Shown here one piece after another: positions 4,647 through 11,812 of a stretch of 64,000 nt of DNA (the stretch's first letter is position 1; each line of letters opens with the position of its first letter). A model generated the notes under the pieces. The model made no database searches and had not been told where the DNA came from. It saw only the letters and a program-made list of their open reading frames with translations. Source of the stretch: Candidatus Multivorans sp. (lineage in GTDB: Bacteria; Acidobacteriota; Thermoanaerobaculia; Multivoradales; Multivoraceae); contig OZ245033.1 of assembly GCA_965224025.1 (NCBI GenBank), positions 1,408,001-1,472,000 of the forward strand. The letters are read 5' to 3'. Made by a program: the position numbers and the translations under genes.

Positions 4647-6056
4647 GTGCAGAATGCTCGGCGACGTGGCAGAATAGTGCCTTCGGCCGCGCCCTTCCGA
4701 CTCCGCCAAACTGTGTATTCCAAGCAACTTGCAGGTTGGATCTGCGTTTCGGTCCTGCTCGCCGGGACGGCCGTTCTGGGCTGGCTCGCCCTGAAGCCCC
4801 GGCCCGGAAAACTGGTTCTGGCCATTCCCGACGCGGGGGTTGACCGGGCGGGCGGCGCCGACGCCGACGAAGGCCAGGGCCTGGATGCCACTGCCCTCGA
4901 CCGGGCGCCCTTCCCTCTGGAGAACCGCATTCGAAGCGGGGACACGCTGGACCGCGTACTGCTGCGAGCGGGCGTTCCCGACTCCGAGCTGTACCAGGCG
5001 TCGAGGGCGGTAAGCGAAGTGCTCGATCCACGGAGGCTCCGAGCCCGTGACCCGGTCTATTCCATGGTGCGCCAAGGCGGGGAGTTGGTGGGTATCAAGC
5101 TGCCGCGCCGGGGCCAGGGCGTGGTGGTCGCGGAGCGAACGGACGGCGTGTGGAGCAGTCGCTACCGTCCCTTCCGGCGGGCCCACGTGCGACGGTCGTT
5201 TGCCGGCGAACTGCGGGGTGCCCTTGAGAGTTCGATTCGTCGGGCCGGCGGGCCTCCCAGCCTCGCGAACAGCATGGCCCGGGTGCTGCAGTGGGACCTG
5301 GATTTCAACCGCGATCTTCGGGTTGGCGATCGCTTCGAGATCCTCTACGACGAACTGCTGCTCGACGGCAAGTTCGAGAGTGTTGCAGCCATTCACGCGC
5401 TGCGCTACCGGAACCGGGAACGTTGGCTCGAGGCGTACCGCTTCAGCGATGACGGGGGCGCCGAAGGCACGGCGCCGGAGGGTGCCGTCGCGCTGGCGGC
5501 GACGGGACCGAACCGCTACTACGATGGCGAGGGGCAGCCGCTGCGACGGCAGTTCCTCCGTTCCCCGCTTCCATACTCCCGCGTCACGTCGCGGTTCTCC
5601 CTGAATCGCTTCCATCCGATCCTGAAGCGGCGCATGCCCCACTACGGCGTCGATTACGGGGCGCCGGTCGGAACCGCCGTGCGGGCGACTGCCGACGGCG
5701 CCGTGGCCTCGGCAGGCACTCGTGGCGGCGGCGGCCGAACCGTCCGCCTGCGTCATGCCAACGGCTACGTGACGTCCTATCTCCACCTGTCCGGCTATGC
5801 GGAGGGGATTCGTCGCGGCCGTCGCGTTCAGCAGGGTCAGGTGGTCGGTTACGTGGGTTCGAGCGGCCTCTCAACCGCTCCCCATCTCGACTACCGGGTG
5901 CAGCGCAATGGTCGTTGGATCAATCCCGCCACCCTGGTCAACGAGCCTGTTCCGCCGCTGGCCGATGCCGTGCTGCCTGCCTTTCTCCGGCACTGCGACG
6001 CGCTACGCCGGGAACTCCGCGGCGCGGACAGTTCCGTCGTTAGCGCGGGGCCGTAG
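4647..6056 (+). CDS. M23 family peptidoglycan DD-endopeptidase (MepM/Csd3-like)
   Basis: N-terminal TM, HYGVDY (HxxxD), YLHLS and PHLDY motifs; start uncertain. Confidence 0.9.
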   Translation: MQNARRRGRIVPSAAPFRLRQTVYSKQLAGWICVSVLLAGTAVLGWLALKPRPGKLVLAIPDAGVDRAGGADADEGQGLDATALDRAPFPLENRIRSGDTLDRVLLRAGVPDSELYQASRAVSEVLDPRRLRARDPVYSMVRQGGELVGIKLPRRGQGVVVAERTDGVWSSRYRPFRRAHVRRSFAGELRGALESSIRRAGGPPSLANSMARVLQWDLDFNRDLRVGDRFEILYDELLLDGKFESVAAIHALRYRNRERWLEAYRFSDDGGAEGTAPEGAVALAATGPNRYYDGEGQPLRRQFLRSPLPYSRVTSRFSLNRFHPILKRRMPHYGVDYGAPVGTAVRATADGAVASAGTRGGGGRTVRLRHANGYVTSYLHLSGYAEGIRRGRRVQQGQVVGYVGSSGLSTAPHLDYRVQRNGRWINPATLVNEPVPPLADAVLPAFLRHCDALRRELRGADSSVVSAGP

Positions 6057-6082
6057 GCGGTGCGTCGCGGCCGCGCCGCGGC

Positions 6083-6113
6083 GACGGGCGTCGGCAGGTC
6101 ACCCGCCCGTCTT
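6083..6113 (+). terminator. Possible terminator hairpin after the M23 gene
   Basis: GACGGGCG...CGCCCGTC stem followed by only a short TT. Confidence 0.3.
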
Positions 6114-6273
6114 GGGGCAGTAGGGGCCGGCTCCCAGGTGACGTTCGCGCTTGAGAGGAGATGGGAGGTGTTGCGCTCACTCCGCCTCACTCGCTCCGGT
6201 TTGGCGTTGGATCATGTGCTGTCGTCGGGCGTCGCTCGTTCAGAGGCACCTGGGAGCCGGCCCCTACTGCCCC
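6114..6273. repeat. 27-bp perfect inverted repeat with 106-nt spacer (REPIN/MITE-like or ncRNA)
   Basis: 6114-6140 GGGGCAGTAGGGGCCGGCTCCCAGGTG is the exact reverse complement of 6247-6273. Confidence 0.85.
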
Positions 6274-6433
6274 GACAGGGCTGGCGGTCGTTGCCGAGAG
6301 AGCTGGCACAGCTAGTAACTAGCCAGCCAGGGCGGGTTGGGGAACGCGCCTAGGGTTGCTGTACTGGGCTTTGCGTACCGCGTCTTTCGAGAAGCGCGGG
6401 TTCCCGGGCGGGTGGCCTTGGCCTCGACCCGAG

Positions 6434-7876
6434 CTACTCGAGGGAGCGGGCGCGTTCGCGGAGGATCGAGTAGGCCTCGGAGCGGGAGAGTTCGTCGTCG
6501 AGCTGGAGATTGAAGGTCTCGCTCCAGGCGCCGGTCGCCGGATCGGTCTCGACGTAAGCCAGCGAAGACCCGTTCTCCCAGGCGACCACTGCCCCGGTGC
6601 CATTGGGCGAGACGAAGATCTTCTGCTGGCCGCTTCCGGTCGTGGGGGCCGCGCGCTCCGATTTGACCTGCAACCGGGCAAGGTGCTGGACGTAGCCGTC
6701 GCCGACCGGTTGGGCGGCGGCGAGGAGCACGTGGCCGTTTCCGTTCGCGGCCCCCTCCAGTAGATCGCCTTCCTGGGATCGAGCGCCAACCAGCACGATA
6801 TGAACTCGGGCAGCACTGGAGATGCCTGTCAGACCGTCCTCAGCGCACAAGTCCGCCGCGCGATCAACGAGTACATTCTCTACGTCTTGCGCCAATGGAC
6901 TGAGCACTCGGCTCCGAATCCGGCGACCCACGAGCACGATGTGTACACGGGCCGCTTCGGCTACCGAGGTGATCGCGTCCGCTTCCTCGTTCTCGATCCG
7001 CAGGCAGAGATTGGTGGATTCCAAATGATCTGCGAGGCTGTCGGCGAGTTCTGCCAGTTCGACTGCCGGTGTGGAGAGTTCCAACTGGACGAAGGCTCCG
7101 CTGGCGCTATCCGCGAAACCGATGACAACCGCGTTGGACTCGGAGGCGGAGTCGACGGTGGGTGCCTTGAGCAGACTCGCCGGCACTTCGCCGTCGAACG
7201 GATCGTCGATCAACTCCTGCGATACGTAGTCGTTCAGCCGGTGAACGCGGCGCCACGTGGATGCAAGCTCGCCGTTGATGAGAACGACAGGCGCGTACAT
7301 GGCCCTCTCGCCATCGGCCGTGTTTTCCGACCAGACGACATGAAGGACGGTTCGGGCGCTCGACAGGCCGCTACTTCCTTCCGCGAGTTCGAATCGATCG
7401 TGCGTGACGGCGAGGCGCGGGGCCGACTTGTTGCTATAGATGTTGCCGGAGACTTCAATGGTGTCGGACCATTCGCTGCCGTCGAAGGAGGCCAGGTTGA
7501 TCCGCGTCAGGGTCGAGTCGTTGTTGCTCGACCAAACGACGTAGAGCCGGCCGGTGGAGGCGTCGAAGAACAGCGACGGCGTCTTGTCGCTGTCGTCCGC
7601 CTCGCTGCCGGGCACCAGGTGGTGCTCGACCGTGCCGGAACCGCGCCGGGCCTCTAGCAGTAGGACTTCGGCTTCGGCCGAGGCTTCGCTGCCATCCGGG
7701 AACAAGTCGACGTAAGTTCCGATGACGATTTGGTAGACATCGCCGCTCTTTCCCAGCACCGGTGCGCTGTTCGCGGCATGCAACGCACCGTTGCCGAACA
7801 GCAATGCCAGGACTGCTGCACCGACCGTGCCAGCCAGTCGTCCCCCGTTCGAGATTTTCTTGAGCATGCGCTTCAT
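6434..7876 (-). CDS. Secreted protein of unknown function with two AARVHIVLVG motifs
   Basis: Start overlaps the TPR gene stop (GTGATG); Sec-type signal ending ALHA; beta-rich VVW segments; motif copies at 6926-6955 and 6785-6814. Confidence 0.8.
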   Translation of the reverse strand: MKRMLKKISNGGRLAGTVGAAVLALLFGNGALHAANSAPVLGKSGDVYQIVIGTYVDLFPDGSEASAEAEVLLLEARRGSGTVEHHLVPGSEADDSDKTPSLFFDASTGRLYVVWSSNNDSTLTRINLASFDGSEWSDTIEVSGNIYSNKSAPRLAVTHDRFELAEGSSGLSSARTVLHVVWSENTADGERAMYAPVVLINGELASTWRRVHRLNDYVSQELIDDPFDGEVPASLLKAPTVDSASESNAVVIGFADSASGAFVQLELSTPAVELAELADSLADHLESTNLCLRIENEEADAITSVAEAARVHIVLVGRRIRSRVLSPLAQDVENVLVDRAADLCAEDGLTGISSAARVHIVLVGARSQEGDLLEGAANGNGHVLLAAAQPVGDGYVQHLARLQVKSERAAPTTGSGQQKIFVSPNGTGAVVAWENGSSLAYVETDPATGAWSETFNLQLDDELSRSEAYSILRERARSLE

Positions 7877-8886
7877 CACGCTCTCAGGTTCACCACTTGC
7901 CGGACATCGAGCGACATGAGCACATTCGCAAGTCCAGTCTGCTCGGGATAGAAGCGCTGCTGAAGCTCGTGGAAGAACTGACGCGCCCCTTCGGTGTCCC
8001 GGTCCAGTATGGCCGCCTGTCCCAGCAGGTACAGGCTGTTCTTGACCGCATCCCAGTTTTCGTGCTGGCGGGCCAAGTTCAGGGCGCGTTGGCCATGCCG
8101 CTTTGCGTCGCTCGGCCGGTTCAACTCTAGGTGAGCGAAACACAGGTCCAGGTGCGGCAGTATGCTGAGTTGGACCGCTCCTTCGCGCCGAAAGGTGCGG
8201 ATGCTCCGGTAGACCAACCGAAGCCCCTCCCGCATTCTGGCACGACGAAAGCCCTTGGCCCCGAGCGCACTGACGAGTAGGCAGTGGCCCAGATTCGTCT
8301 CGGCGCTGGCTGTCCAGGCAGGCGGTGCGCCGTTCGCGTCGCGCAGCGCCGTTCGGTAACAGACAGCTGCCTCAGTTTCCCTGCCTTCGGCCACTAGGAG
8401 GTTACCCATGAGAGTCTGCGCCAAGCCTGTGAGGCCGTCGCGCTCGACATACACCGCACGATCGCGGAACAACCGGGCATAGAAGAGCGCCTTCTTGATC
8501 TGCCCCTCCAACTCGTGCGCGCGGGCCAAGGTATAGGAGGCCAGACAAGAGTTGTGGTCGACGGTGGTTCCGAGCAGGATCGGCCGCAGTCTGGGCATGA
8601 CCTCGGCCCCGTTCCCGAGTTCGGTCTCCGCCGCTCCCCAGCCGCAGAGGGCCTCGTCGGCCAGGTCGGCTTCGCCCGCGGCGGCGGCGACTTGGGCGGC
8701 CTGTCGATAGACGGCGGCGGCTTCCCGGTACGAGCCCGTGGCGACCAGTTCCCGCCCGCGGTCGCGGAGCGTCTCGAAGTCCTCGGTCACGTCGGTCGCG
8801 CACGCCTCCACCTCGGGCGCTGGAACGCGCTCCGGGATAAACGTCGGCTCAGGCGACGAGTGGGTGGGAAGAACTGTGGCGGTCAC
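7876..8886 (-). CDS. Cytoplasmic tetratricopeptide-repeat protein
   Basis: Repeated helical A..Y..AL and (N)LG patterns; no signal peptide or obvious HTH; TAGAAT 9 nt upstream of the GTG start. Confidence 0.8.
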   Translation of the reverse strand: MTATVLPTHSSPEPTFIPERVPAPEVEACATDVTEDFETLRDRGRELVATGSYREAAAVYRQAAQVAAAAGEADLADEALCGWGAAETELGNGAEVMPRLRPILLGTTVDHNSCLASYTLARAHELEGQIKKALFYARLFRDRAVYVERDGLTGLAQTLMGNLLVAEGRETEAAVCYRTALRDANGAPPAWTASAETNLGHCLLVSALGAKGFRRARMREGLRLVYRSIRTFRREGAVQLSILPHLDLCFAHLELNRPSDAKRHGQRALNLARQHENWDAVKNSLYLLGQAAILDRDTEGARQFFHELQQRFYPEQTGLANVLMSLDVRQVVNLRA

Positions 8887-9082
8887 TGGTAACCGATTCT
8901 ACGCCATAACGAGTGGAAGGTGGTAGGCGGCTGGAACTGCCGTTGTCGACGACCTGCCGCGGGGCCTCGACGGCCGAGTATACCCGCATAGGCACCGCCT
9001 GCAGCACGGCGATAGCCGTGCCTTCCGATCTCTCTTGTGCGGCAGGCCTTCGTAGCCGCGGCGGCCGTTCCCCAGGCTCGCC

Positions 9083-9124
9083 CAAGAGCAAGAGCGCCGT
9101 CCCTGACTTGAACAGGAACGGCGC
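9083..9124 (-). terminator. Intrinsic terminator between the peptide frame and the TPR gene
   Basis: Minus strand GCGCCGTTCCTG-ttcaagt-CAGGGACGGCGC followed by TCTTGCTCTT. Confidence 0.6.
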
Positions 9125-9217
9125 CCAAGGGGATTCGTCGCGGGAGCGTACTGGCGGCTGGTCGCTCACTAGTCGTTCAGACCGCTGCCAGCCTCGCGCC
9201 GGCGATCCCAAGTTGTC

Positions 9218-9398
9218 TCAGAACGCCAGGCGAAAGGCGGCCGCCACGGCGGACCGCACCACCTTGCCCGAGATTCGCGGAGCCATACGGCTGACCGCCT
9301 GCTGCACGATCCCGCCATCCGCTTGCCGCTCGGCGGTTCCGGAATTCCGGCTGCCTTCACGTCCAACGAGGACGATGTGGGCCCTTGCGCAAGTGCAC
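9218..9398 (-). CDS. Putative small peptide ARAHIVLVG...VVRSAVAAAFRLAF (start unresolved, possible frameshift)
   Basis: Frame 9388-9218 gives 56 aa plus TGA; no in-frame ATG/GTG/TTG precedes the motif; an SD-preceded GTG at 9398 is one base out of frame. Confidence 0.55.
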
Positions 9399-9459
9399 GG
9401 CGGTGCGTCTCCCGCAGCGCCAACGAAGCCGGAATCGACTGGACTACAATGCTCGCTCC

Positions 9460-9752
9460 ATGATCCGGTCGTTCGTCGATCGAGCCACCGAGGACATCTT
9501 CGACGGCGCGGCGACGCGAGCGGCTCGGAGAGGGTGTCCTCCTGCCGTTTGGCGTGTTGCCCGAAGGAAGCTCACGCAGCTCAACCAAGTGGACGAACTC
9601 CGCTATTTGGCTGTGCCGCCGGCAACCGCCTGGAGCGGCCGCGAGGAGATCGAGCCGGTCAGTACAGCATCCGAATCAACGACCACTATCGAGCCTGTCT
9701 TGTCTGGGAGGGAGGCTATGCCGACGACGTCGAAATCGCCGACTACCACTGA
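9460..9752 (+). pseudogene. higB: HigB/RelE-family toxin, frameshifted
   Basis: MIRSFVDRATEDIFDG...ARRKL...LAVPP in one frame and GNRLE...GQYSIRINDHYR...VEIADYH in another; one base missing near 9620. Confidence 0.85.
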
Positions 9753-9798
9753 GGCGGCTGCGGGCAGCCGCGGTGGAGGAACTCTGTCCGCACGCCGG

Positions 9799-10107
9799 TT
9801 GCCACGGTGTCAACCCCCGGCGCACCCGGGAGAGATGCTGCTCGAGGAGTTCCTGAAGCCGTTGGGCATCTCGCAGTCGGCATTTGCCCGGAGGCTGGGT
9901 GTCTCCTATCCGCGCCTTCGTGGGATCGTCCATGCCAAGGGCACCGTGACTGCAGATACGGCGTTGCGGTTGGCCCGAGTTACCGGGATGACCGCCGAAT
10001 TCTGGCTCGGCCTGCAGCAGGACTGGGATCTCTGGCACGCTGCACGGTCCAGGAACGCGGCAGCCATCGAGGCACTGGAGCCGCTGCGTACCTCGGCTAC
10101 TTCGTAG
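9799..10107 (+). CDS. higA: HigA-family antitoxin (Xre HTH)
   Basis: PAHPGEMLLEEFLKPLGISQ, TADTALRLAR and EFWLGLQQDWDL motifs; start uncertain. Confidence 0.9.
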   Translation: MPRCQPPAHPGEMLLEEFLKPLGISQSAFARRLGVSYPRLRGIVHAKGTVTADTALRLARVTGMTAEFWLGLQQDWDLWHAARSRNAAAIEALEPLRTSATS

Positions 10108-10199
10108 CCGCCGCGTTCCCGCCGGCGTCCGGCGAGGGTGCGCCGGGAGGGGCGAGGTACGCGGGCTAGACTGGCAGGCATCGCCGAACGGGCGAGTGC

Positions 10200-11812
10200 A
10201 TGCCGATGGCCGAGCGCTTCTTCAACACCTCCGGGCCGGTGGTTCCGGCCAAGCACTACAGCATCCCGCCGCTTGAACGGTTCGACCTCGCCGAGGTCCT
10301 GCGCCTGATCGGGGACGAGCGGTACTTCGTGCTGCACGCGCCGCGCCAGACGGGGAAGACGTCAGCGCTGCTGGCGCTTCGCGACCTGCTGAACGAGGGG
10401 AACGAGTACCGCTGCGTCTACGCCAACATCGAGACCGCACAGACGGCGCGCGGCGATGTCGGCGCGGGGATTCGGACCGTGTTGGCGGAGATCTCGGAGC
10501 AGGCGCTTGTCGCTCCGGGCGACGACTTTCTGGATGGGATGTGGGAACGGGCGCTTGCTCGGGCGGGTCCGCACGGCGCCCTGCGGCTCGCGTTGGGCCG
10601 TTGGTCGCAGAACGATGTCAGGCCGCTGGTCCTGTTCCTGGACGAGATCGACGCGCTGGTGGGCGACACGCTGATCTCGGTGCTGCGCCAGTTGCGGGCG
10701 GGGTACGCCAACCGTCCGGCGGCCTTTCCCCAGACCGTGATCCTGTGCGGGATCCGCGACGTGCGTGACTACCGCATCCACTCGGAGTCGGGGGACGAGA
10801 TCATCGCCGGCGGCAGTGCGTTCAACATCAAGGCGGAGTCGCTGCGGCTGGGCGACTTCGACGAGGGCGACGTGTGCGCGTTGCTTGGCCAGCACACCGG
10901 GGAGACGGGGCAGCCGTTTACCGAAGCGGCGCTCGCCACGGTATGGAACCAGACGGAAGGTCAGCCGTGGCTGGTAAACGCGCTGGGCTACCAGGCCTGC
11001 TTCAAGGCCAAGCCTGCTCGGGACCGCTCGCGGCCGATCGACGAGAAGCGGTCATGGAGGCCAGGGAGGAGTTGATCCTGGGCCGCCAGACGCATCTTCA
11101 CCAGTTGGCGGACAAGCTGCGCGAGGAGCGGGTGCGGCGGGTGGTGGAACCCGTCCTGAGCGGCGGCGCGGCCGGCCGAGCCAGGCCCGACGACGTGGAG
11201 TACGTGCGCGACCTTGGACTCCTGGCGCCGGGTGGCACGGCGCGGATAGCCAACCCGATCTACCGGGAGGTGATCCCGCGGGAACTCAACTACGCCCGGG
11301 AGGCCATGATCGTCCAGGAGACCGAATGGTACGTGAAGCCGGACGGCGACCTCGACGTGGAGGGTCTGCTGGCGGCCTTCCAGCGGTTCTTCCGGGAGCA
11401 TTCGGAGCACTGGCTCGAGCGGTTCCAGTACAAGGAAGCGGGTCCGCAGTTGCTGCTGCAGGCGTTCCTTCAGCGGATCGTGAACGGCGGCCGCCGGATC
11501 GAGCGCGAGTACGCGCTGGGCAGCCGCCGCACGGATCTGCTGATCGTGTGGCCGCCCGGCCGCTTCGGCGGCGCGAGCGAGCCGGCCGAGCCCGCGCGCC
11601 GCTACGTCGTGGAGTGCAAGATCCTGCGGGGGAGCCTGGAGGCCACGATCCGCGAGGGGCTGAAACAGACCCTGGCCTACATGGACAAGTGCCGGGGCGA
11701 GTCGGGGCATCTGGTGATCTTCGACCGGGACGGGTCGAAGCCGTGGGAGGAGAAGATCTTCCGGCGCGAGGAGTCGCTGGACGGCCGGGCCGTGACCGTG
11801 TGGGGTGCCTGA
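10200..11812 (+). pseudogene. AAA-like ATPase fused to C-terminal PD-(D/E)xK nuclease, frameshifted near 11046
   Basis: Walker A APRQTGKT and Walker B LFLDEID in 10200..11075; EREY...RTDL...VVECK in 10874..11812; one added base joins the two frames. Confidence 0.8.

Follow-up and report, generated by a model that had tools for sequence, protein, structure and literature searches.

The gene pair and its distribution

We describe a gene pair and an upstream frame in a 64,000-nucleotide window of Candidatus Multivorans sp. DNA (contig OZ245033.1 of assembly GCA_965224025.1, positions 1,408,001 to 1,472,000), from an Acidobacteriota bacterium of the order Multivoradales. The pair consists of a gene for a tetratricopeptide repeat (TPR) protein and a gene for a secreted protein that contains a nine-residue motif twice. 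The motif recurs once more in the upstream frame, which matches a small gene of related genomes (type A, described below). An earlier note on this DNA had proposed that the three elements form a peptide-signalling or assembly module in which the TPR protein recognises the motif. The features are listed here with coordinates of the window, by which we mean the whole stretch analysed.

6434..7876, minus strand: secreted-protein gene, an open reading frame (ORF) of 480 amino acids (aa) plus stop
7772..7876, minus strand: predicted signal peptide of the secreted protein, ~residues 1-35 (basic start, hydrophobic core, A-x-A; read by eye from translation and alignment)
7010..7042, minus strand: degenerate third repeat slot of the secreted protein, ~residues 279-289, in register with a live motif copy of other family members
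6926..6952, minus strand: motif copy 1, A-R-V-H-I-V-L-V-G, residues 309-317 of the secreted-protein ORF
6785..6811, minus strand: motif copy 2, the same nine residues, residues 356-364 of the secreted-protein ORF
7876..8886, minus strand: TPR protein gene, 336 aa from the GTG at 8886; proposed motif receptor
9215..9428, minus strand: 3' remnant of a type A gene, with the second motif and the C-terminal tail remaining and the start codon absent
9362..9388, minus strand: third motif copy, A-R-A-H-I-V-L-V-G, inside the type A remnant

The stop codon of the TPR gene and the start codon of the secreted-protein gene share the overlap TGATG. The TPR protein matched the Pfam families TPR_2 (3.8e-10), TPR_14 and TPR_12 over a span from residue 38 to 314; an alternative gene call in the same genome gives it 304 aa (P0269). 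No signal peptide was apparent on reading its translation, and by that reading the protein is cytoplasmic. The secreted protein consists of a Sec-type signal peptide (by reading), an N-terminal domain, repeat slots of ~23 residues that carry the motif, and a C-terminal domain. The basic start, hydrophobic core and A-x-A of its signal peptide were conserved across the alignments, as read by eye. It matched no family in Pfam or NCBIfam, and a PDB sequence-profile search with its family returned a single match at chance level (E 0.047). A scan of window positions 6000-10500 against Rfam at E<=1 gave no match. PADLOC left the secreted protein, the TPR protein and type A unmatched, and the module fits none of its defence models. 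Five OppA-type binding-protein matches were found in the window's genome.

To follow the pair across genomes, 120 loci were fetched besides the window, giving 121 loci with 137 gene copies. The TPR gene lay directly upstream of the secreted-protein gene and on the same strand in all 137 copies. By gene order, the conserved core is thus a TPR gene followed by a gene for a Sec-type secreted protein. The earlier note had described a 336-aa cytoplasmic TPR protein whose gene overlaps the start of a gene for a secreted protein of about 480 aa, and had linked the two; the reading frames, the Pfam matches and the pairing in every copy bear this out. Directly upstream of the TPR gene, 82 of the 137 copies had a gene for an XRE-type helix-turn-helix (HTH) protein (HTH_3). 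A fused HTH-TPR form did not occur among the 120 listed TPR homologues, but these are mostly close relatives and the search did not extend to longer proteins, so the result does not argue against such a form.

The secreted-protein family was present in 153 of 201 sampled genomes of this order, and a search at E<=0.001 of sequences clustered at 50% identity gave 570 cluster representatives. When 301 genomes from across the phylum were sampled, full-length matches were confined to this order (10 of the 12 sampled, including the window's genome). Thirteen genomes from other orders of the class matched in the N-terminal domain only, over roughly the first 230 profile positions and without the motif region, and none of the ~274 sampled genomes of other classes gave a match. 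Since the other orders match the N-terminal part only, it may be that this order alone has added the motif-bearing repeat region. One of the thirteen genomes with the N-terminal match, G233, is unpublished.

Outside the window's family, the surroundings of the module were conserved in seven loci (L151-L157). Upstream lay a divergently oriented set of genes, for an ABC-2 permease, an FG-GAP repeat protein, a secreted protein of 428 aa and a protein of 1700 aa with five PKD domains, with a Wzt-like ATPase gene farther upstream; downstream were convergent genes for a GHMP kinase and an M23 peptidase. These conserved neighbours could be genes that the module regulates. The M23 peptidase is retained in the window.

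Twin motifs and the TPR residues that track them

The motif shared by the secreted protein and the upstream frame is confirmed and cannot be put down to chance. When the genome (5,142,510 bases) was scanned in six frames, HIVLVG appeared three times, in each case at this locus. A looser motif pattern occurred at ten places, and only these three were of the AR.HIV type. Copies 1 and 2 differ in 7 of 10 codons, so the motif is not a DNA repeat. Both the threefold occurrence of a near-identical 9-mer conserved as protein and its double occurrence within the secreted protein had been pointed out in the earlier note, and both are confirmed here.

Across the family, the motif follows the pattern [A/I/V/L]-R-x-[H/Q/N]-[I/L/M]-[I/V]-x-x-G, whose nine residues we number -1 to +7. 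The two best-matching 9-mers of each protein were identical in 122 of the 137 proteins and agreed at eight of nine residues in five more. Among 50%-identity cluster representatives, 113 of 144 had identical twins and 14 had twins matching at 8/9, compared to at most 6/9 in shuffled controls. Identity between the twins was held from position -1 to +7 in 121-126 of 126 proteins, and at positions -3 and -2 in only 62 and 77 of them. The sequence that the twins share nevertheless varies greatly from protein to protein, with 85 distinct 8-mers among the 126. Homogenisation of the DNA, for example by gene conversion, is ruled out as an explanation for the identical twins. The identical blocks, taken from 45 genes, contain 454 codons, of which 223 differ between the copies; independent codon draws would give 233. 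Judged from these counts, the twin motifs are kept identical by selection on the protein. Most proteins have two copies, a few have three (for example L063) and a few have one. The spacing between copies is quantised at 20-25, ~45 or 65-70 residues, which suggests repeat slots of ~23 residues. In the window's protein, the degenerate third slot is defined by the coupling, in register, of motif positions -3 to 6 to residues 279-288; residue 282, which lies opposite the invariant Arg, is missing from the coupled residues. Where two modules share one locus, their motifs differ (14/14).

The variation of the motif is matched by variation in the TPR protein. We compared the two proteins in 35 pairs from the window's genus and in 91 pairs from outside it. 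Within the genus, three motif positions were each tracked by TPR residues in all 35 pairs. Val, Phe or Gly at position 6 went with Val-Ala, with Gly-Asn or Gly-Ser, or with Leu-Ala, respectively, at TPR residues 48-49; Leu as opposed to Val or Ile at position 5 went with Cys114 as opposed to Trp114; and Val, Ile/His or Ala at position 1 went with Thr, Gly or Val at residue 197. Position 5 was also tracked by residues 140, 143, 144, 156 and 157, within the 140-157 stretch, and His at position 1 by Asp240. In this code a large residue pairs with a small one and a small with a large. On the secreted-protein tree, positions 6, 5 and 1 changed state 8, 7 and 9 times. Independent pairs separated by supported branches agreed in 6 of 6 cases for positions 6 and 1 (p 0.03) and in 5 of 5 for position 5 (p 0.06).

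Among the 91 pairs from outside the genus, the motif positions again had the same TPR positions as their strongest partners. Asp at position 5 was accompanied by Arg114 in 37 of 42 pairs (two-by-two table 37/5/1/48), and Glu by aromatic residues or Gln. Position 2 was linked to TPR residue 159 (Gln-Gln in 26 pairs, His-Leu in 22), and His at this position to Glu89 in 36 of 38 pairs. Position 1 was linked to residues 243, 194 and 197, and positions 6 and 4 to residues 60, 48 and 45. When the repeat region was left out of the tree, Asp5 changed 19 times and Arg114 17 times. Among 15 independent pairs on supported branches, a mean of 12.4 changed the same way and none the opposite way (sign test p ~0.0005). 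The Gln2-Gln159 pairing gave p ~0.03. As an internal control, coupling of the motif positions was assessed against 351 columns of the secreted protein as well as 240 columns of the TPR protein. With the other motif slots set aside, the strongest partners were TPR residues 159, 114, 89 and 155, which beat every residue of the secreted protein itself. This residue-level covariation, found both within and outside the genus, strongly supports the proposal of the earlier note that the TPR protein recognises the motif, and suggests that it does so specifically and co-diversifies with it.

The positions of the covarying residues suggest how the motif might be held. By the Pfam register, residues 48-49 correspond to positions 12-13 of the first helix (helix A) of their repeat, and residues 158 and 162 to positions 5 and 9 of that helix. 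In TPR-peptide complexes, these helix A positions line the concave groove. Asn158, Asn162 and Asn198 are conserved in 97%, 95% and 100% of the TPR proteins, and the order of the covarying residues along the TPR protein is the reverse of the order along the motif. The helix A positions, the conserved Asn residues and the reversed order together fit a peptide that runs, extended and antiparallel, along the concave TPR groove, a picture that draws on the register and on what is known of TPR-peptide complexes. The C-terminal end of the motif would then be read by the first TPR repeat and the N-terminal end by later repeats.

Two residues set the window's own TPR protein apart. Residue 158 (8413-8415) is Thr in place of the Asn found in 97% of 125 relatives, and residue 201 (8284-8286) is His in place of a Tyr shared by 99%; the two changes occur together in this protein alone among the 137. 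Since both residues are near-invariant and lie inside the stretch that covaries with the motif, the window's copy may be weakened or retuned. Recombination alone was considered as a cause of the covariation and rejected: positions 5 and 6 follow different, separated TPR segments, and the sequence between these segments does not co-segregate.

The covariation also bears on the possibility that the motif is a structural or amyloid-like element. The copies could be stacked strands of a solenoid, or a templating motif of the kind found in HET-s/NWD2 and in bacterial amyloid signalling (BASS), with the TPR protein as a bystander. The occurrence of two or three copies in slots of ~23 residues with quantised spacing, the hydrophobic, strand-like core of the motif and the sharing of the motif between adjacent genes in the genus are consistent with this; as in HET-s/NWD2 and BASS, two copies lie in one partner and copies resemble each other more within a locus than between loci. 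However, the motif couples to TPR residues above residues of its own protein, and family members with a single copy exist. In amyloid signalling, as defined in 10.1101/2020.01.06.895854, an NLR protein (NB-ARC/NACHT plus repeats) has the motif at its N-terminus and a small Bell/HeLo-type effector has it at its C-terminus. Here the TPR protein has TPR families only and no NLR NTPase domain, its gene contains no HIVLVG-type motif (the three occurrences in the genome all lie outside it), and in the secreted protein the motif is internal (residues 309-364 of 480) with no Bell-type effector. Moreover, the motif here has nine residues and appears to be read by residues of a TPR groove. The comparison with amyloid signalling in the earlier note does not hold in these defining features, and we consider a structural or amyloid-like role highly improbable.

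Small motif carriers upstream in the genus

The earlier note had taken the short, unannotated frame at 9388-9218 for a peptide gene. The frame does carry the motif, as claimed. However, no ATG, GTG or TTG precedes the motif in it, the ORF list holds no entry of at least 30 aa at 9388-9218, and by reading the first in-frame start is a GTG downstream of the motif. The frame matches residues 43-110 of an intact 110-aa protein in relatives (79% identity, E 6e-30), which we term type A. In a DNA alignment, homology to type A begins near 9428, within what would be the first motif, and the remainder is replaced by sequence on the side of a higB gene. By these alignments, the upstream frame is no peptide gene and is the remnant of a gene for a small secreted two-motif protein that has lost its 5' half. 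Its motif, A-R-A-H-I-V-L-V-G, differs from the local secreted-protein motif at one specificity position. A stretch of 330 bases from the remnant to the TPR start looked conserved at first and was set aside; it is common only to seven close type A loci and has no second copy in the genome.

Upstream carriers were searched for in 31 loci of the genus and in 10 loci of other families; loci L071-L150 were left out because of their short flanks. Motif-bearing frames lay upstream of the TPR gene and on the same strand in 18 of the 31 genus loci, and were found neither in the other 13 nor in the 10 loci of other families. The expectation that homologous loci carry short upstream motif ORFs thus held for part of the genus only, and the three-part architecture put forward in the earlier note is not a conserved layout.

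The carriers are of two types. Type A was present at this place in 10 of 42 genomes of the genus, in one copy each, with eight full genes and two truncated ones (the window's genome and one other). The full protein has ~110 aa, with a signal peptide, two different motifs twelve to fifteen residues apart and a conserved tail, and conservation across the eight full proteins breaks down only at positions 1, 5 and 6 of the two motifs. Type B comprises 11 frames in eight loci, each ~24 codons long and hydrophobic, in which the Gly of the motif is immediately followed by a stop codon (11/11). A start codon was present in 10 of the 11, and in the three frames inspected in register a Shine-Dalgarno-like GGAAAGGAG or GAAAGGAGG lay 6-8 bases before the start. 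In their sequences, type A and type B look like propeptides. In L044, L048, L053 and L058, the stretches before the type B frames translate to a repeated unit of ~17 residues, which suggests a tandem DNA repeat of ~51 bases.

The motifs of these carriers do not follow those of their own loci. Compared with the motif of the local secreted protein, 28 of the 29 upstream motifs carry one to three changes, always at or beside the specificity positions, and 16 of the 29 equal the module motif of another genome. The earlier note had expected the upstream motif to co-vary with the secreted protein of the same locus, and this is not the case. Instead, the twin copies of the secreted protein co-vary with each other, and the TPR protein co-varies with both. 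The sole locally matching motif is in L055 (oriented coordinate 2376), in a frame of 12 codons without a start codon that lies upstream of one module and ends in the motif of the other local module.

These results bear on the model of the earlier note, in which the TPR protein has the short upstream peptide as its ligand and the secreted protein serves as a decoy, source or nucleator of the motif. The presence of small motif-bearing genes upstream in more than half of the genus loci and the similarity of type B peptides to short pheromone precursors are in line with it. Against it stand the start-less remnant in the window, the mismatch of nearly all upstream motifs while the local TPR residues track the secreted-protein motif, and the loci of the genus and of other families that lack carriers. 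Taken together, these findings make the model very unlikely.

Another possibility is that the pair resembles a polymorphic toxin-immunity or kin-recognition system, with the secreted protein acting on neighbours and the TPR protein neutralising or recognising the self variant. Diversification of the two proteins as a pair, the difference between co-resident modules and the orphan-like extra variants beside the module would all fit. However, the secreted protein has no toxin domain or any other family match, neither it nor the TPR protein nor type A matched in PADLOC, and the variable part amounts to three to five residues of the 9-mer while the rest of the protein is conserved. The module also sits in a conserved chromosomal neighbourhood across families. 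We therefore regard a toxin-immunity-like function as very improbable indeed.

Reading of the module and its surroundings

By its sequence, the TPR protein is a generic TPR protein. Among natural proteins of solved structure, its best sequence-profile matches are LGN/Pins and OGT, a likeness that is that of TPRs in general. LGN/Pins and OGT are eukaryotic scaffolds or enzymes, and hold an extended peptide by means of an Asn ladder on their A helices. The TPR protein described here has a conserved ladder of this kind (N158, N162 and N198).

Among bacterial systems, the module most invites comparison with RRNPP peptide signalling. The RRNPP signature, as outlined in PMC10075063, consists of a receptor of 250-500 aa with TPRs, an adjacent propeptide of 10-100 aa, and export by Sec or PptAB. 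The module agrees with this in the size and repeats of the receptor (336 aa) and in the direct adjacency of receptor and carrier genes, with the TGATG overlap and pairing in 137/137 copies; receptor and peptide also appear matched in specificity, as judged by covariation. RRNPP peptides are released from the cell and taken up again through an oligopeptide permease; on this point, the window's genome offers the five OppA-type matches given above. With the Rap-Phr systems, in which autoinducers are repeated, identically or in diverged form, and phr genes are duplicated (as summarised in PMC5199041), it shares the joint diversification of receptor and peptide, the repetition of the peptide within its carrier and the extra, diverged carrier genes. 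The module differs from RRNPP systems in that the matching carrier is a 480-aa protein with an internal peptide rather than a propeptide of 10-100 aa, that the small carriers of the genus (~24 and ~110 aa) mismatch the local receptor, that the host belongs to a diderm phylum, Acidobacteriota, rather than to the Firmicutes, and that the HTH is a separate gene or absent. Because of the 480-aa carrier, the non-Firmicute host and a likeness that is that of TPRs in general, we conclude from the sequences that the module is not a member of RRNPP. A further parallel concerns the HTH. Rap proteins have no HTH of their own and act on a separate DNA-binding protein; the TPR receptor described here likewise lacks an HTH and would act on a separate DNA-binding protein.

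We propose that the TPR protein is a sequence-specific receptor for the nine-residue motif of the secreted protein encoded downstream, and that it works in the manner of Rap-Phr/RRNPP signalling, a reading to which we give an even chance. In this scheme, the secreted protein would be exported by Sec and the motif peptide cut out of it. The peptide would return to the cytoplasm and fill the TPR groove, and the peptide-filled TPR protein would change its action on a DNA-binding partner; in most families, this may be the XRE-HTH protein whose gene immediately precedes the TPR gene. The receptor and its ligand would diversify jointly into many private 'dialects'. The window's genus would have added small exported carriers, type A and type B, bearing non-self variants, of which the window's type A is a dead remnant. 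The direction of information flow is inferred. We favour a Rap-Phr-like signal on three grounds. The gene order, the overlap, the size of the receptor and the predicted export of the carrier agree with four of the five points of the RRNPP signature in PMC10075063; Rap-Phr systems are reported to have both repeated peptides, identical or diverged, and duplicated carrier genes (PMC5199041); and many private variants are expected of ligands shared between cells and not of a chaperone-client pair.

The alternative that deserves most attention is that binding precedes export. The TPR protein would hold the motifs of the precursor in the cytoplasm, as a dedicated chaperone/holdase or partner switch, be freed when the precursor is exported and then act on the XRE regulator. 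This is the logic of the class II chaperones of type III secretion, which double as co-activators; these bind a short linear motif in their groove and are linked to a transcription factor. The class II chaperones (IpgC, SycD, PcrH type) are TPR proteins beside a secreted protein (PMC10701871). For the module, the cytoplasmic TPR protein (by reading) is translationally coupled to the secreted protein, the covariation supports groove recognition of a short linear motif, an HTH gene adjoins the pair in 82/137 copies, and neither cleavage nor import would be required. On the other hand, this alternative offers no evident reason for 85 variants among 126 proteins or for divergence within recent duplicates, and small exported carriers of non-self motifs, type A with its signal peptide and type B ending at the motif, make little sense under it. 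The client, with its Sec-type signal (by reading), is not a type III translocator, and the conserved neighbours examined (ABC-2/Wzt transporter, FG-GAP, PKD, GHMP kinase and M23 peptidase) include no gene for type III secretion. Furthermore, class II chaperones have about three and a half repeats (PMC10701871) whereas the 336-aa TPR protein is twice as long, and motif and groove are highly variable here rather than conserved. We judge binding before export unlikely, though well worth keeping in view.

Several points weigh against Rap-Phr-like signalling by the module. The entire case is a comparison of sequences. The carrier, at 480 aa and with domains that look folded, is a conserved protein and not a small propeptide; because the motif is internal, two cuts would be needed, and because the host is diderm, the peptide would have to cross an outer membrane. 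The window's genus has no XRE gene at the locus, and the sole XRE-like match in the window's genome lies elsewhere (58% identity over 64 residues). The nearest RRNPP chain, Rap3T, scored E 8.5e-5, below designed TPRs, LGN/Pins, AfsR and OGT. Simple self-signalling leaves the small carriers of the genus unexplained, since 28 of their 29 motifs mismatch the local one. As for the covariation, the pairings outside the genus other than those given p values above went in the right direction without reaching significance. Within the genus, the specificity positions vary only moderately, ranking 44-112 among 439 columns, and switch among few states. In tandem paralogues, the TPR proteins differ at 95/339 and 117/340 positions and the secreted proteins at only 45 and 36 of 485 aligned columns; in one such pair, the TPR differences are concentrated where the differing motif positions would be read. 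With TPR alleles this old and mosaic, part of the covariation in the genus may come from linked passenger residues rather than contacts.

To our knowledge, signalling by peptides that bind TPR receptors in the cytoplasm is regarded as a trait of Gram-positive bacteria. The RRNPP detector described in PMC10075063 is restricted to Gram-positive bacteria and their mobile elements. Full-text searches of the open literature on TPR/XRE/secreted-protein operons of Acidobacteria or on their peptide quorum sensing, a coverage that excludes subscription journals, returned no description of the module. A whole order of Acidobacteriota carries a module that appears to have the same genetic logic and a specificity code that can be read unusually cleanly from sequence. 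If the receptor reading is correct, the known range of such signalling would widen, dozens of natural orthogonal receptor-peptide pairs with known determinants would become available for studies of specificity evolution and for synthetic circuits, and the large unannotated family (570 cluster representatives) would gain its first functional handle. If the TPR protein is instead a chaperone, a TPR partner specific for a Sec substrate and endowed with private specificity would still be unusual. In its broadest form, the proposal is that this order runs an RRNPP-analogous 'dialect' signalling, the first in a Gram-negative phylum, with a large secreted protein that contains one to three identical copies of the pheromone, a receptor split into TPR and XRE proteins, a decodable residue code, and one genus exporting non-self variants that address the receptors of other strains, as cross-talk or interference. 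We put this forward tentatively, as somewhat short of an even chance.

The sequence beyond the remnant was also examined. At window positions 10200-11812, on the plus strand, two long ORFs in different frames overlap by ~200 bases; the first gave weak AAA ATPase matches and the second none. Between them and the module, a higB/higA toxin-antitoxin pair lies at 9460-10107 on the plus strand, divergent from the module. The higB frame is broken, with its N-terminal part in one frame and its C-terminal 42 residues (HigB-like toxin, E 2.6e-4) in another that ends at 9752; the higA part matched HTH_3. The overlapping ORFs together with the broken higB raise the possibility of assembly frameshifts or decaying genes. 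In a second locus, L052 (oriented coordinates 1252-1741), type A is cut at the same point and matches residues 43-110 only, and a different, small two-gene cassette, which by reading looks like a BrnT/BrnA-type toxin-antitoxin pair, lies upstream. Two different cassettes, one at window position 9428 and one in L052, abut the same breakpoint inside the first motif.

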